This document shows positions 1,393-50,910 of a stretch of DNA of 50,910 nucleotides, piece by piece. Made by a program: the position numbers and the translations under genes. Source of the DNA: Escherichia phage vB_EcoS-95. Every line of letters starts with the position of its first letter. Positions within the stretch are counted from its first letter, which is position 1. The notes beneath the pieces were generated by a model that saw only the letters and a program-made list of their open reading frames with translations, searched no databases and was not told where the DNA came from. The stretch is from the sequence record NC_048132.1. One strand, written 5' to 3'.

Positions 1393-1869
1393 TTAGCTAT
1401 TCGTGCTGTTATCACCTTTGTAGAATCTTCCGCCTGGTTCGTAGTCTGAATTTTTGACTACGCGCAACATTTCGTATTTGTCGCAACGGGTAGTAAGAGG
1501 CTTGCCGTTAGAATCAAACCGCAGATCTGGACGACAAAACGAGGCGCGGTATCCTTTGCATCCATTATATTTGTAGTCGTTATGCACCTTTTGTGCTCCA
1601 GCGGCTGAAATCATACCACGCTTTCGCCATTGGTTAACTACTTGCTGAGATACGCGTAGACGTCGAGCCATAGCAGGGACACCGCCGTAATACTCGATCA
1701 GAATGTCAAGGCGAGATTTCAGGCTTGCTTTTACCTCATCTCGCAGGATAAGAAATCCGGTTCGGTGTTTTCGTGGCTTTTTGTCTTTACCTCGTCGCGT
1801 TCCGTTGTTACCGTTAATAGTGCGCTTGTCGATCTCACCCGTAGACACTGCAATTCGTGCATCTTTCAT
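1393..1869 (-). CDS. HTH DNA-binding protein (Cro/YdaS-like motif), candidate regulator
   Basis: GGVPAMARRLRVSQQVVNQWRKRGMIS resembles Cro/CI-type helix-turn-helix; basic N-terminus; divergent from the helicase gene. Confidence 0.4.
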   Translation of the reverse strand: MKDARIAVSTGEIDKRTINGNNGTRRGKDKKPRKHRTGFLILRDEVKASLKSRLDILIEYYGGVPAMARRLRVSQQVVNQWRKRGMISAAGAQKVHNDYKYNGCKGYRASFCRPDLRFDSNGKPLTTRCDKYEMLRVVKNSDYEPGGRFYKGDNSTNS

Positions 1870-5182: not shown

Positions 5183-5440
5183 ATGAAAAAAGAGAGAAGC
5201 GTTTATTTAAATGAAACTGGCGAATGGTTGTTATTTCGCGCTATGGTGTGCGATGCACTTGATAAAAACCCTAACGTGAAAAAGATGATTGATTGCGATC
5301 CGTGGGAATTTTCAAGCGCATTAGATATGAGCTTTGAGGAGACAAGAAAACTACCGCTTGAAAAATGGCACGAACAAATAAGAAATGACATGCAAGAGTT
5401 TGTCGATTCGTGGAATTTTCAGAACGGAATGATCCACTAA
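5183..5440 (+). CDS. Hypothetical protein
   Basis: 85-aa ORF with RBS; stop TAA directly followed by the box. Confidence 0.4.
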   Translation: MKKERSVYLNETGEWLLFRAMVCDALDKNPNVKKMIDCDPWEFSSALDMSFEETRKLPLEKWHEQIRNDMQEFVDSWNFQNGMIH

Positions 5441-5483
5441 TAGCATTTTTTGTTAAAACGCCCGGCATTTTGTCGGGCATAAT
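5441..5483 (+). promoter_or_regulatory. Box promoter (TAGCATTTTTTGTTAAAAC, hairpin GCCCGGCATTTTGTCGGGC, CATAAT 5478-5483, leader CATAGAAACGAA)
   Basis: Box + hairpin + -10-like hexamer at family spacing. Confidence 0.6.
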
Positions 5484-5509
5484 TATTTCATAGAAACGAA
5501 CGTGAGGAA

Positions 5510-5695: not shown

Positions 5696-5927
5696 ACAAG
5701 GAAGAGATGCGGTATGGAATCACGCTAAAGAATGCGGAATAGCCGACGATATAAAGAAGATAGCGCAATACTTTGATATTGCAGATGTGAGCATAATTAG
5801 CGGTGATAAGATGACTTTCCTCAAGGAAAGGCCGCGAAAAATGGTAAGAGTTCCAGCAGTTCCAACAAAAATTGATTTCAAAGAGGCAATGGCTAAAATC
5901 CGAGAGCCTCGCAAATATTATAAATGA
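5685..5927 (+). CDS. Hypothetical protein
   Basis: ORF track 5664-5927 trimmed to internal ATG (MKVEQGRD). Confidence 0.3.
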   Translation: MKVEQGRDAVWNHAKECGIADDIKKIAQYFDIADVSIISGDKMTFLKERPRKMVRVPAVPTKIDFKEAMAKIREPRKYYK

Positions 5928-5931
5928 GGAT

Positions 5932-5992
5932 AGTTATCATGTGGCGCTTGTTTGTTCTACCGTTACCAGTTATCATCGCTGTTACAGTTATG
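5932..5992 (+). repeat. Direct repeats AGTTATCAT (x2) plus AGTTATG upstream of the HTH-phosphoesterase gene; candidate operator
   Basis: AGTTATCAT at about 5932 and 5968, AGTTATG at about 5986, in non-coding leader. Confidence 0.3.
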
Positions 5993-6021
5993 TACCATAT
6001 AGTAATGAGATAGGTAGCAGA

Positions 6022-7137
6022 ATGAAAAATGTAAAAATTACAGATGAGCAATTCAAGATCGAACGGGCGGCAGGTAAGACATATAAACAGATCGCTCAAG
6101 AGTACGGAATGAATGTGAGAAGCGTCGAACGTCGCGCGGCGCGCCTTGCAAAACAAGGACAGCTATCAACCATCGGAGCGCCTGGTTTTGGTGTTCATGG
6201 TGAGTCAGTAATGACTGACAAAGAAGGCAACATAATCCTCAAGTGGACCAAAACCAGCAAGGATAAAGAGCAACTAGAAGCATTAATGCGCGCAGCAATG
6301 GAGGCGTTTAGCGAGGAAGTGCCGCGATTAGATTCAGTTCCATTGCAGGAGCGTGACTATAATGAAACGCTTTCATTGTATCCGATCTTTGACATGCACT
6401 TAGGCGCTATGGCCCATAAGCACGAATGCGGCGAAAATTGGGATACTGCGACGGCGGAGCGCGTTATGAATAACTTTATTGACTATGCTTTGATGTGCGC
6501 ACCGGACAGCGAAAAGGCTGTTATCCTGATTGGTGGCGACATGCTTCATAGCGATGGCCTTGAGGCTGTGACACCTGCAAGCGGTCACGTACTTGATCAA
6601 GATAGCCGATATGCAAAATTGGTTTACGTTGCAATCCGTGCAATGCGTCGCGCAATTAACAAAATGCTGTTAAAGCATAAGCATGTTGAGGTCCAGATCG
6701 TAGAGGGCAATCACGACCAATCAGGAATGATTTGGCTACGCGCAGCAATGGCGGCAGCATATGAGAACGAGCCGCGCGTTTACGTTGATGTTTCTCCTCG
6801 CGTTGTTCACCACACGCAATACGGAAAAACTTTCCTTGCGTACCATCACGGGCACACAGTGCGCAAACCTGAGACTTTGCTAATGATGTGCGCGTCAGAT
6901 TGGCGGGAGGACTTCGGAAACTCAAAAACGATGTATGCGCACGTAGGGCACTGGCATCACCAGACCGTGACGGAAACGTCGCTTGGCATCGTTGAGGTGC
7001 ATAGCACCCTGGCGGCAAAAGACGCATACGCCGCGCGCGGTGGATGGAGATCTCGACGCCGTGCAGCGGTTATCATTTACGACAAAGAGCATGGAGAAGT
7101 TGGGCGATTTGTTCACTATCCAGAAATGATGAATTGA
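6022..7137 (+). CDS. HTH domain fused to calcineurin-like metallophosphoesterase
   Basis: N-terminal HTH (KTYKQIAQEYGMNVRSVERRAARLAKQG); DMH, GGDMLHSD, GNHD, HHGH, GHWHH metallophosphatase signature motifs; start at internal ATG (track start 5872 is TTG). Confidence 0.5.
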   Translation: MKNVKITDEQFKIERAAGKTYKQIAQEYGMNVRSVERRAARLAKQGQLSTIGAPGFGVHGESVMTDKEGNIILKWTKTSKDKEQLEALMRAAMEAFSEEVPRLDSVPLQERDYNETLSLYPIFDMHLGAMAHKHECGENWDTATAERVMNNFIDYALMCAPDSEKAVILIGGDMLHSDGLEAVTPASGHVLDQDSRYAKLVYVAIRAMRRAINKMLLKHKHVEVQIVEGNHDQSGMIWLRAAMAAAYENEPRVYVDVSPRVVHHTQYGKTFLAYHHGHTVRKPETLLMMCASDWREDFGNSKTMYAHVGHWHHQTVTETSLGIVEVHSTLAAKDAYAARGGWRSRRRAAVIIYDKEHGEVGRFVHYPEMMN

Positions 7138-7185
7138 TGAATTTTTATTTAAATCAATGACAAATTAAATCAAAAACTTGCAAAG

Positions 7186-7216
7186 GGGCGGCGTTTGTCG
7201 CCTCTTTTTTTGTTTG
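7186..7216 (+). terminator. Weak rho-independent terminator after the phosphoesterase gene
   Basis: Short GC stem (GGCG..CGCC) followed by TCTTTTTTTGTTTGATTTTTT. Confidence 0.35.
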
Positions 7217-7244
7217 ATTTTTTACCATGTAAGTTTATCATTCG

Positions 7245-7281: not shown

Positions 7282-7497
7282 ATGAAAGATTTTATTAACG
7301 CAGCTACCGCCGGATCTGGCGGTTCATCTATCGCAAGCGCCGCGACAGGGCAGTTAACCATTGCTATTGCCAGCTTTGTTTTAATGGCTGCATTCGGTGC
7401 ATGGGGCGCTTACCTTCGCTGGCGTGATAGTAAAAAATTCCACGAGGCGATCGAAAATGGTGATATTCAAAAAGCTATTGAAATCAGGGGCAAGTAA
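7282..7497 (+). CDS. Holin (single TMD, 71 aa)
   Basis: Small protein with one hydrophobic helix and charged C-terminus, immediately upstream of endolysin. Confidence 0.55.
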
Positions 7498-49163: not shown

Positions 49164-50910
49164 GAGATCAACAAGTTTTGCAACCATCGACTTTAATTCG
49201 TCAACCTCTCGCTCAAGATTATCTATTCTTTCCTTGTTTTCAACGTCACGCGCCCTAAGAGCCTTGATTGCAGCAAGGCCATCAAGAAGCATAGGTGTTT
49301 GATCAAGATGCCAGAATCCTCCAACGTCCTTTGTGTATTCCTTGTCGATCGCCCTTATTTGCTGGGAAATAACGCCGCGACGAGTTGCACCAGCATTTTT
49401 CTTTGTTGTATGCTCCTCTTTAAACTTAAATAGTTTAAACTCCATTCTGTTGATGTTATCAAGCGCACACTCGACATTCATATCACCCATCACGTCCTTT
49501 AATCGCTCGTCAGACACGGCGCTTGTTGTCAGTTGCACCCATCCACTCCATGATGAGTCGTTTGTCTGTATTCTTGAGAATATCCTGTTTGACGTATCAT
49601 AAAACCTTTGCTGATACCACTTATTTCTAGTACCAACATTGTTTGCCCTTCCGGCTGATAATCCTTGCGAGCACTGAGTGAAAAGAGAGCCGTATACATT
49701 CCCGCTTTGAGGCGTTCCTGTTCCAGTGCCACCCCAATTTCGCCACCCTTGATGCGCTTCATTCATGTTTGCTGCCGTGTAACCAGGGACCGATGTTCCA
49801 CCTATAGCAAGCCCACCCTCATATGAAACATATCTTCTCTCCGTTGTATTTGGTCTTTCAATAACAATCGTCCTTCGATCTGTGTTATCACTTTCTTTTG
49901 CGAAAAATATGTTTAACTCATTCCCTCTGTTGTTTTCTGCATAAATACGTCTACCTATATATGTTTCGTCAACAGATGTAGAATTAAGAACTACAGAAGG
50001 CCATCCCGTTCTAATTGACAATCCTGAAAATGTAGGTGAGTGTTGTGCATTAAGGCCGATATTGTTTCGTATTCCGTTTGCGTCTTTAGCTCCTGTTCCA
50101 CCCTTATTTACTGGCAAGGCTATATCAGAATTAGAGGCTGAATCCCACATCCCCCAATCGCCATTATTTTTTACGAAAATTCGCTTTGTTCCATCAGCAC
50201 TTGAAACGACAGTCTCACCGGATGCATCAGACCCCTGCACCAATCTATCTACGCTTAAGTTTTTTCTTGCTTCACCTTTATCTGCAAGATCGTTAAGGTT
50301 GTTGTTTTTGTTAAGCATATTTTCCGGATTTATGCTATCTGCATATTCTTTCGCCTTATCTTCAGAAGCCTTAGCGGCATTTTTTGATGTCAGGGCGTCA
50401 GAAGCAGATCTGGCAGCTTCGCTCTTGCTTGCATTGGCTGCATTCTCTGAATTTTTGGCATTTGTCTCCGACGTCTTTGCTGCATTCTGAGAAGCGAGCG
50501 CAGCTTCCTGAGATGCTTTAGCGGCATCCTTGCTTGCATTTGCTGCGTCTTCTGAATTTTTTGCTTTAGTTTCTGAATTCTTTGCGGCGTTCTGAGATGT
50601 TAGCGCAGCAGACGCTGAATTTGCCGCCTCTATCATGCTTGAGTTAGCCGCCGTTTCAGATGCTTTAGCATTAGTCTCTGACTCTTTTGCTGCAATCTTG
50701 CTCGCGTTTGCTGCGTTTTCTGACTGTTTAGCATTAGTCTCTGACGCTTTCGCTTCGTTCTTTGAATTAAGCGCATCGGACGCAGATCTTGCTGCGGCAT
50801 CCTTACTTTGACTCGCAGACTCTGCGTTTTCTTCCACCTGTTTAGCTAAATCCTGATAATGCCTCCAATCAAACGTCTTAAGGAATTCGAGCGCCTCCCC
50901 AATCTCTGAT
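49158..50910 (-). CDS. Tail fibre protein with C-terminal intramolecular chaperone domain (5'-truncated at window end)
   Basis: Ser/Ala/Asn/Lys repeats (ASETNAKNSENAANASK) like T5 pb1-type fibres; C-terminal ERLKDV...peptidase S74-like chaperone; reading frame stays open to 50910. Confidence 0.65.
   Translation of the reverse strand, partial: SEIGEALEFLKTFDWRHYQDLAKQVEENAESASQSKDAAARSASDALNSKNEAKASETNAKQSENAANASKIAAKESETNAKASETAANSSMIEAANSASAALTSQNAAKNSETKAKNSEDAANASKDAAKASQEAALASQNAAKTSETNAKNSENAANASKSEAARSASDALTSKNAAKASEDKAKEYADSINPENMLNKNNNLNDLADKGEARKNLSVDRLVQGSDASGETVVSSADGTKRIFVKNNGDWGMWDSASNSDIALPVNKGGTGAKDANGIRNNIGLNAQHSPTFSGLSIRTGWPSVVLNSTSVDETYIGRRIYAENNRGNELNIFFAKESDNTDRRTIVIERPNTTERRYVSYEGGLAIGGTSVPGYTAANMNEAHQGWRNWGGTGTGTPQSGNVYGSLFTQCSQGLSAGRANNVGTRNKWYQQRFYDTSNRIFSRIQTNDSSWSGWVQLTTSAVSDERLKDVMGDMNVECALDNINRMEFKLFKFKEEHTTKKNAGATRRGVISQQIRAIDKEYTKDVGGFWHLDQTPMLLDGLAAIKALRARDVENKERIDNLEREVDELKSMVAKLVDLK

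Follow-up and report, generated by a model that had tools for sequence, protein, structure and literature searches.

A helix-turn-helix metallophosphoesterase of T1-like phages: candidate DNA phosphodiesterase, weak candidate for the 21-nt repeat-binding factor

Is a phage protein that joins an N-terminal helix-turn-helix (HTH) to a complete metallophosphoesterase (MPE) core a regulator directed to repeated DNA boxes, or an enzyme of DNA metabolism? The question is raised by a locus of Escherichia phage vB_EcoS-95 (NC_048132.1), whose 50,910-nt sequence is the window analysed here. A preliminary description, made without database searches, had regarded the fusion as unusual, had taken two AGTTATCAT direct repeats ahead of the gene as its possible operator, and had put the protein forward as a candidate for the factor binding a 19-bp box or as a DNA-targeted phosphatase or nuclease. 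The window derives from a T1-like coliphage (Drexlerviridae, Tempevirinae, Warwickvirus), with phage tonijn as the reference relative. The 1.8 kb around the MPE gene are 96-97% identical to those of approximately 50 T1-like coliphages, tonijn being one of them, and the MPE protein is 99.7% identical to that of tonijn (gp32, YP_009901254). Public records name the gene 'DNA repair exonuclease' or 'putative phosphoesterase'. The coordinates of the features discussed below are collected in Table 1.

Table 1 Features of the MPE gene and its surroundings, in window coordinates.
Feature	Position	Strand	Remarks
Nearest upstream box copy, ATAGCATTTTTTGTTAAAAC	5437..5484	+	Followed by GC hairpin 5460-5478, then CATAAT
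Small ORF, 61 aa	5510..5695	+	First gene of the unit; phrog_2180 (E 7.4e-14); hypothetical in tonijn
Small ORF, 80 aa	5685..5927	+	phrog_2817 (E 2.2e-34); tonijn gp31
AGTTATCAT, copy 1	5932..5940	+	Spacer behind the Shine-Dalgarno sequence, and first base (A) of the micropeptide ATG
Small ORF, hydrophobic 24-aa peptide MWRLFVLPLPVIIAVTVMYHIVMR	5940..6014	+	Shine-Dalgarno GAGGA 5926-5930
AGTTATCAT, copy 2	5968..5976	+	Within CC[A GTT ATC AT]C, codons P-V-I-I of the micropeptide ORF
HTH-MPE gene	6022..7137	+	371 aa; ATG 6022, stop 7135-7137
Tri-helical HTH domain	6034..6162	+	aa 5-47; recognition helix approximately aa 31-47
Linker module	6163..6357	+	aa 48-112; beta-hairpin 58-78 with invariant W75, helix 82-99
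MPE core, motifs I-V	6358..7116	+	aa 113-365; includes conserved loop VTPASGHVLDQDSRYAKL
Intrinsic terminator-like hairpin and T-run	7182..7217	+	End of the unit; the holin gene follows at 7282

The open frame around the MPE gene spans 5872-7137, and the RefSeq record of tonijn starts the gene at a GTG equivalent to 5941, giving a product of 398 aa. This longer reading was rejected: most relatives have an in-frame stop upstream of the shorter form, and the synonymous fraction of this frame within the leader is low. Across 81 related loci, most of those outside the closest group carry the stop at most 30 nt upstream of the equivalent of ATG 6022. Homologs in the protein database are nearly all 370-380 aa long, and precisely the limits 6022-7137 are given in at least one GenBank record (ON716453). 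The homolog lengths, the upstream stops and this annotation therefore bear out the limits given in the preliminary description: the ORF is genuine, and the comparison identifies ATG 6022 as its correct start. The GTG start assigned by RefSeq in the closest relatives is probably wrong and over-extended.

The sequence immediately upstream, previously read as the leader of the MPE gene, appears itself to be coding. It contains a small ORF for a hydrophobic 24-aa peptide; some phage records list an alternative form of 29 aa, which begins at ATG 5924, as a hypothetical protein. The micropeptide stop lies 7 nt before the MPE start, and translational coupling between the two genes is possible. A comparable hydrophobic ORF of 21-27 aa occupies the same place in nearly all Drexlerviridae loci compared, despite nucleotide divergence, with counterparts such as MWRLLLLPLPVMMAISIVYVVIMR and MRYISVILLPPVIAWVIMYAVVMN, and MKLYFAVVLTPLISFSVMYFIIM in T1. 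When 17 distinct sequences of the MWR/MLR type are compared, synonymous changes account for 38% of codon differences in the micropeptide frame, as against 17% and 6% in the two alternative frames, and the variable columns in the micropeptide frame number 11, 8 and 18 at the first, second and third codon positions, the third being highest. This pattern indicates a conserved membrane micropeptide gene directly upstream of the MPE gene, one that is missing from many annotations.

The AGTTATCAT pair has to be read against this background. The repeats are present, exactly twice in the window, as had been noted; what does not stand is that they exceed chance, lie in a non-coding leader or are conserved. 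At the second copy the proline codon is CCA in this genome and CCC or CCT in every relative compared, including phages that are 97% identical overall, so this copy is seen only here, through a single synonymous change. Exact direct repeats of at least 9 nt within 60 nt number 23 in the window, as against 10 ± 3 in Markov-1 random sequence, and among these the AGTTATCAT pair is unremarkable. We thus regard the pair as a coincidence inside the micropeptide gene and not as a regulatory element. The suggestion that it forms the gene's own operator falls away, since the pair sits at chance level within a conserved 24-codon ORF and its second copy is absent from the relatives compared; that operator would be an artefact of taking a small coding ORF for a leader.

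The MPE protein itself begins with the HTH, to which a linker module and the catalytic core are joined. In the AF2 model, the N-terminal helices span residues 8-16, 21-27 and 32-44, with a pLDDT of 78-85 for the block. Pfam Sigma70_r4_2 matches the protein below threshold (E 0.0017; 18.4 bits versus 25.7), and a profile built from close relatives gives a weak match to the LuxR-type DNA-binding domain of DosR (E 0.44). Pfam HTH matches were found repeatedly in 40 distant family members (Sigma70_r4_2 1.5e-9, GerE 2.4e-8, HTH_28 5e-6). These matches in relatives, together with the fairly confident predicted helices, argue that the fusion of an HTH to a complete MPE is real, in agreement with the preliminary description, and DNA binding by the HTH is predicted. 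The N-terminal 45 residues appear to share the helix-turn-helix pattern of LuxR/GerE and of sigma-70 region 4; in those proteins, however, the domain accompanies a receiver or sigma core, whereas the MPE protein joins it to an enzyme. Few parts of the protein are less conserved than the HTH. Some family members do not have it, so DNA tethering is presumably not essential for catalysis. The linker module is kept across the family, also in those members without the HTH.

All five calcineurin-like motifs listed in the preliminary description were found in the core: D124-M-H126, G172-D173-M-L-H176, G229-N-H-D232, H275-H-G-H278 and G309-H-W-H-H313. They conform to the superfamily patterns DxH, GDxx(D/H), GNH(D/E), H and GHxH. 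The metal ligands correspond to D124, H126, D173, N230, H231, H276, H310 and H312, and these positions are invariant in alignments with 30 close relatives and with 40 relatives at 30-55% identity (30-92% identity overall). The core also contains a conserved loop that is specific to the family (aa 183-200). Structure prediction, suggested earlier as a check, returned the MPE fold: the AF2 model (mean pLDDT 74.7) has a well predicted alpha/beta core at residues 114-364, with the four-layer alpha/beta sandwich of the calcineurin-like superfamily. The best 10 Foldseek matches were all archaeal Mre11 proteins (E 1e-7 to 4e-6), with GpdQ and Rv0805 next in rank; the nearest solved folds are MJ0936, SbcD and Mre11.

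Sequence profiles place the protein less readily. Pfam Metallophos (PF00149) scores 16.8 bits, below the gathering score of 21.5 (E 0.0099), and matches 10 of 40 relatives at E ≤ 0.01. An NCBIfam search of the protein gave no meaningful match, and a PDB sequence search with the protein and the family profile yielded nothing significant, the best matches being CD109 (E 1.8) and the DosR HTH (E 0.44). By comparison, PHROG 704, 'DNA repair exonuclease', is matched at E 4.6e-148, with residues 5-370 aligned to profile positions 3-389 of 390. On these scores the MPE protein appears to represent a divergent subfamily for which neither Pfam nor NCBIfam has a dedicated model.

Membership of the same superfamily might suggest a Ser/Thr protein phosphatase resembling lambda-PP/NinI, and one Jerseyvirus record does name its homolog 'serine/threonine protein phosphatase'. 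The signature of PPP enzymes is GDxHG...GDxVDRG...GNHE. In the MPE protein, motif I reads FDMHLG and motif II reads GGDMLHSDG without the DRG arginine; the PPP signature is absent, and a protein phosphatase is extremely improbable.

Mre11/SbcD share with the MPE protein the calcineurin-like fold and the five motifs, including GDxxH, which is motif II of Mre11, and GNHD; they also provide the best Foldseek matches, while sequence identity is 12-18%. The architectures differ. In Mre11/SbcD a capping domain follows the nuclease, whereas the MPE protein has none, its core ending at approximately residue 365 of 371. Conversely, Mre11 is without the N-terminal HTH and hairpin module. The activity characteristic of Mre11/SbcD is Mn2+-dependent, combining a 3'-5' exonuclease with an ssDNA endonuclease. 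Mre11/SbcD also have a Rad50/SbcC partner encoded with them; the annotation of the complete T1 genome lists no such gene, nor does that of the 18 kb surrounding the gene in tonijn, and none was found flanking the MPE gene in six other phage groups inspected. T1 encodes its own RecE-like exonuclease, Erf and SSB, so that, with no Rad50/SbcC partner, a role in recombination is not obviously needed. The B subunits of family B and D DNA polymerases (PolD DP1; Pol delta, alpha and epsilon) are a further point of comparison. The MPE protein is without an OB-fold domain, no cognate catalytic polymerase subunit is annotated in T1, and the eukaryotic B subunits are inactive whereas the MPE protein keeps all catalytic residues.

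A functional precedent is provided by Gp48 of mycobacteriophage A10ZJ24, a cluster A phage-encoded MPE with the five motifs that has phosphodiesterase activity and is reported to disrupt host genomic DNA (PMC12287305). Gp48 differs from the MPE protein in that no HTH is described, motif I lies near residue 10 (D10G mutant), and the protein is dispensable on one host (PMC12287305); as far as shown here, the two are homologous at the level of the superfamily only.

The joining of HTH and MPE had been considered unusual, but it proves to be the norm in PHROG 704. An exhaustive HMMER search returned 4600 clusters (50% identity) at E ≤ 0.001; among the 150 clusters listed most are 370-420 aa long, and most listed members therefore carry an N-terminal extension. 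By tblastn, the MPE protein was found in 2046 of 50,697 phage records, approximately 4% of sequenced phage genomes, including Drexlerviridae, Dhillonvirus, Jerseyvirus, Gorganvirus, Schitoviridae, Vibrio, Campylobacter and roseobacter phages. The homologs are annotated variously, for example as 'DNA repair exonuclease', 'phosphoesterase', 'oxidoreductase' or 'winged helix-turn-helix protein', and the re-annotation of TLS names the equivalent gp66 'proof-reading exonuclease' (PMC11447400). A 2026 pangenome analysis reported the gene as persistent, with an exonuclease-holin-endolysin-spanin module in 508 of 522 Drexlerviridae (PMC13164509). Within this group the PHROG 704 proteins (tonijn gp32, T1 QEG04383, TLS gp66) belong to the same family and represent the same gene in the same position, directly upstream of the holin-endolysin-spanin cassette. 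There is no substantive difference between them and the protein studied here; only the RefSeq GTG start of the close relatives sets these apart, and all the names are predictions. In the literature searched we found no experimental work, biochemical or genetic, on the PHROG 704 family; a phage Tn-seq preprint and a Dhillonvirus anti-Tmn paper do not bear on the MPE gene. Judged by these searches, HTH-MPE is the standard architecture of PHROG 704, and the gene is a core, already annotated gene of Drexlerviridae.

In the window, the MPE gene follows the box copy at 5437, the two small ORFs and the 24-aa peptide ORF, and is itself followed by the terminator at 7182. The stop TGA 5925-5927 of the 80-aa ORF overlaps ATG 5924. 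The wider order in T1-like phages is helicase, VRR-NUC, Dam, small ORFs and MPE. Gene context differs between phage families: in the temperate phage mEp554 (cI, integrase) the MPE gene lies between an O-type replication initiator and a 'DNA helicase' gene, in Dhillonvirus between the lysis genes and TerS, and in Jerseyvirus in a small island with an HNH gene; in a Schitoviridae Vibrio phage its neighbours encode a phosphatase and a dATP/dGTP pyrophosphohydrolase.

These neighbourhoods bear on whether the MPE protein could act with the lysis cassette, either by hydrolysing a phosphodiester of the membrane or envelope, in the manner of LpxH, or as a lambda Q-like late/lysis regulator placed before S-R-Rz. 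The persistent MPE-holin-endolysin-spanin order of Drexlerviridae (PMC13164509) would be in keeping with such a role, as would the adjoining lysis genes in Dhillonvirus and a Vibrio phage and the conserved membrane micropeptide gene directly upstream. However, a terminator separates the MPE gene from the holin gene, in mEp554 the gene belongs to the replication module, well away from the lysis genes, and no lysis genes are found among the neighbours in Jerseyvirus and Schitoviridae phages. In addition, the MPE protein has no membrane segment, and both the HTH and the Mre11-like top matches indicate DNA. We consider a link to lysis highly improbable.

The phosphatase and pyrophosphohydrolase neighbours in the Schitoviridae Vibrio phage could instead be taken to indicate hydrolysis of a small-molecule phosphodiester, such as a cyclic or linear nucleotide signal, by a counter-defence or nucleotide-metabolism enzyme. 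The motif set also suits class III cyclic-nucleotide phosphodiesterases, and genes for polynucleotide kinase and dNMP kinase lie directly downstream in many Drexlerviridae, as described in the KanT1 paper (PMC13164509). An enzyme of this kind would have no obvious use for a conserved HTH of the DNA-binding type, and Foldseek ranks Mre11 above such enzymes. PADLOC gave no match for the MPE gene. Furthermore, the gene is found in 508 of 522 genomes and its core keeps 84-92% identity among relatives with 75-85% identity overall, whereas counter-defence genes are typically fast-evolving. A small-molecule substrate is thus unlikely.

There remains the box. The 19-bp box of the preliminary description, ATAGCACTTTTTGTTAAAAC, was searched with up to three mismatches and occurs in 16 copies in the window, all with two mismatches or fewer and each oriented with the downstream gene. 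By sequence it corresponds to the published 21-nt repeat of TLS and T1. In TLS this repeat, aaATAGCACnnnTTGnTAAAA, is located approximately 76 nt upstream of start codons, and its function was posed as an open question (PMC11447400). T1 has 9 copies. Where copies were inspected with their flanks (two repeat families), a short hairpin or spacer lies between the box and a downstream CATAAT or close variant. The copy nearest to the MPE gene probably lies at the head of the transcription unit in which this gene comes last.

A copy at the head of the unit invites the reading that the HTH is a sequence-specific regulator, binding the 21-nt box and/or the AGTTATCAT 'operator' with the MPE domain acting there. 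The HTH is real, and the function and binding factor of the box are an acknowledged open question (PMC11447400). Were the HTH-MPE protein to recognise the 21-nt repeat of T1-like phages, a nuclease or phosphodiesterase would be placed at promoter-proximal sites genome-wide, and the question posed in the TLS paper would be answered. The distribution of the box speaks against this. A degenerate box pattern is present in every Drexlerviridae locus fetched, but the box is absent from approximately 35 loci of temperate-type phages, whose MPE proteins are 64-67% identical. Phage mEp554, with a 66% identical protein, has none within the first 50 kb of its 53.8-kb genome at up to three mismatches, and the box is likewise missing from the loci of Dhillonvirus, Jerseyvirus, Gorganvirus, Vibrio and Schitoviridae phages that encode the MPE protein. 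TLS-like phages have an identical 20-mer box, whereas their recognition helix is only 47% identical to that of the window, compared with 84-87% for the MPE core. The AGTTATCAT pair lends no help, being at chance level, coding and not conserved.

As a separate observation, the MPE gene of the temperate relatives is preceded by a TATACA[A/T]4TGT.AAC motif; its resemblance to the box is AT-rich and needs indels, and it is an unproven lead.

Another HTH protein of the window offers an alternative. The phrog_2856 regulator, encoded on the minus strand at 1393-1869, occurs in 848 phage records; the 25 of these that were sampled are all genomes of 43-52 kb, mostly named T1-like phages, so its distribution seems confined to T1-like genomes. 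Within the limits of this 25-record sample, it appears to fit the distribution of the box better than the MPE protein does. The box follows Drexlerviridae rather than the MPE family, and it is unchanged where the recognition helix has diverged. The proposal that the MPE protein is the box-binding factor is therefore not upheld: it is a weak candidate, recognition of the 21-nt repeat being very improbable and a regulator acting at the box or the AGTTATCAT pair scarcely less so.

We favour the view that the MPE protein is an HTH-tethered, metal-dependent DNA phosphodiesterase or nuclease acting in phage DNA metabolism, to which we assign a probability of roughly 0.55. The ORF, its start, the motifs, the fold, the family, the distribution and the gene context are established, while DNA as the substrate, the metal dependence and the biological role are what we infer. 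This was among the options of the preliminary description and is the most reasonable reading, with small-molecule phosphodiesterase, protein phosphatase and lysis-linked roles being less likely. The enzyme would be a phosphodiesterase with a binuclear metal site, probably Mn2+, its catalytic core grouping with the Mre11/SbcD-like enzymes of the calcineurin-like superfamily. The HTH would tether the enzyme to DNA, and may replace the capping domain and the Rad50/SbcC partner used by Mre11/SbcD, both of which are absent here. Thus held, the core may cut DNA phosphodiester bonds, as an exonuclease or as a single-strand endonuclease at ends or structured DNA, and could serve in processing replication or recombination intermediates or in host DNA breakdown. 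The MPE gene would be the last in a middle, DNA-metabolism transcription unit, and this position suggests a role in phage DNA transactions. More specifically, that the protein is the nuclease degrading the host chromosome during T1 infection strikes us as unlikely.

Hundreds of T1-like genomes already carry this gene under the same functional prediction, and the finding itself matters little. Besides the RefSeq start and the overlooked micropeptide gene, its interest lies in two questions left open in the TLS paper, namely host DNA degradation by T1-like phages and the identity of the 21-nt repeat binder (PMC11447400). The MPE protein is a candidate for the former and a poor candidate for the latter. 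As the family is widespread and belongs to the core of Drexlerviridae, it would make a reasonable target for biochemistry.

The window contains 16 sites of ATAGCACTTTTTGTTAAAAC, the 21-nt Drexlerviridae repeat (hereafter the box) already described in the TLS paper (PMC11447400), and the orientation of the repeat is always that of the downstream gene. Where copies were read together with their flanks, the 3' side was found to carry a short GC hairpin or a spacer, followed by CATAAT or a close variant. The distance from the TTGTTA within the repeat to CATAAT is 22 nt in the one copy measured, which exceeds standard sigma-70 promoter spacing. A box-containing intergenic region separates a helicase gene from the HTH regulator gene that faces it, which belongs to family phrog_2856. 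This regulator yielded 848 phage matches, apparently in T1-like genomes only (25 sampled). Given this distribution, the phrog_2856 regulator is, on phyletic grounds, a better candidate for binding of the 21-nt repeat than the HTH-metallophosphoesterase (MPE).

Repeats and genes in the window and in related phage loci
Feature	Locus	Position	Strand	Remarks
HTH 'transcriptional regulator', phrog_2856	window	1393-1869	-	158 aa
21-nt repeat	window	1881, 4370, 5440, 16880, 17343, 18561, 20027, 22824	+	
21-nt repeat	window	8680, 10842, 11516, 13715, 14221, 15525, 31870, 35621	-	
Hydrophobic micropeptide gene	window	5940-6014 (alternative start 5924)	+	24 aa; 29 aa if begun at 5924
TTAAATCAA, two copies	window	7149-7173		16 nt apart; between MPE stop codon and terminator
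Four degenerate direct repeats, ~81 nt each	window	50424-50777, near window end		spacing 105, 105 and 63 nt; 65-80% identity
HNH/homing endonuclease gene	L082 (T1)	6207-6689		directly 3' of MPE gene
HNH/homing endonuclease gene	L085	6171-6671		directly 3' of MPE gene
HNH/homing endonuclease gene	L087	6028-6537		directly 3' of MPE gene
TATACAAAATG(G/T)A-like motif, examples	L090 (mEp554)	6466, 9913, 17943, 22591, 38177, 38204		
TATACAAAATG(G/T)A-like motif, examples	L038-L075	just 5' of gene		

A T1-like query also matched approximately 20 records that carry a Campylobacter jejuni phage label. Two of these, MG065649 and MG065670 ('Campylobacter phage A143/A121'), are genomes of 48-50 kb with an 80% identical regulator, and the Campylobacter host label may therefore well be wrong for these records.

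The HTH-MPE proteins of temperate E. coli phages are 64-67% identical to that of the window, and in one such phage, mEp554, the gene is flanked by the O gene on one side and, on the other, by a gene annotated as 'DNA helicase'. The Drexlerviridae box was not found in the temperate E. coli phages encoding HTH-MPE, which instead bear a motif resembling TATACAAAATG(G/T)A; in mEp554 this motif matches 11 times, where 1.8 matches would be expected. One of the copies directly precedes the ribosome-binding site of the HTH-MPE gene, and TGTGATC...GATCACA palindromes adjoin several of the copies.

For the closest relatives, RefSeq and GenBank entries place the start of the MPE gene at an upstream GTG (window 5941), giving 398 aa. 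Comparison of related loci indicates that this start is an over-extension that swallows the small-ORF region, since most relatives have an in-frame stop just 5' of the ATG at window 6022. In nearly all of the Drexlerviridae loci compared, the MPE gene and the ORF before it flank a conserved micropeptide gene, left unannotated in many records, including RefSeq tonijn (a close relative of the window). Its stop codon lies 7 nt before the MPE start in the window, and in relatives the micropeptide gene overlaps the MPE Shine-Dalgarno sequence, an arrangement that suggests translational coupling of the two genes.

Downstream of the MPE gene, the TTAAATCAA pair is one of 23 local 9-mer repeats in the window, and is probably due to chance. 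An HNH or homing endonuclease gene immediately follows the MPE gene in T1, a Jerseyvirus and a Vibrio phage, a position consistent with homing beside a highly conserved gene. As judged from alignment with close relatives, the MPE gene is itself a domain-level mosaic: two related proteins (P0070 and P0077) are 74-81% identical to the window protein over the HTH region and 62-63% over the MPE core, a contrast suggesting that the N-terminal module and the catalytic core have been brought together by recombination.
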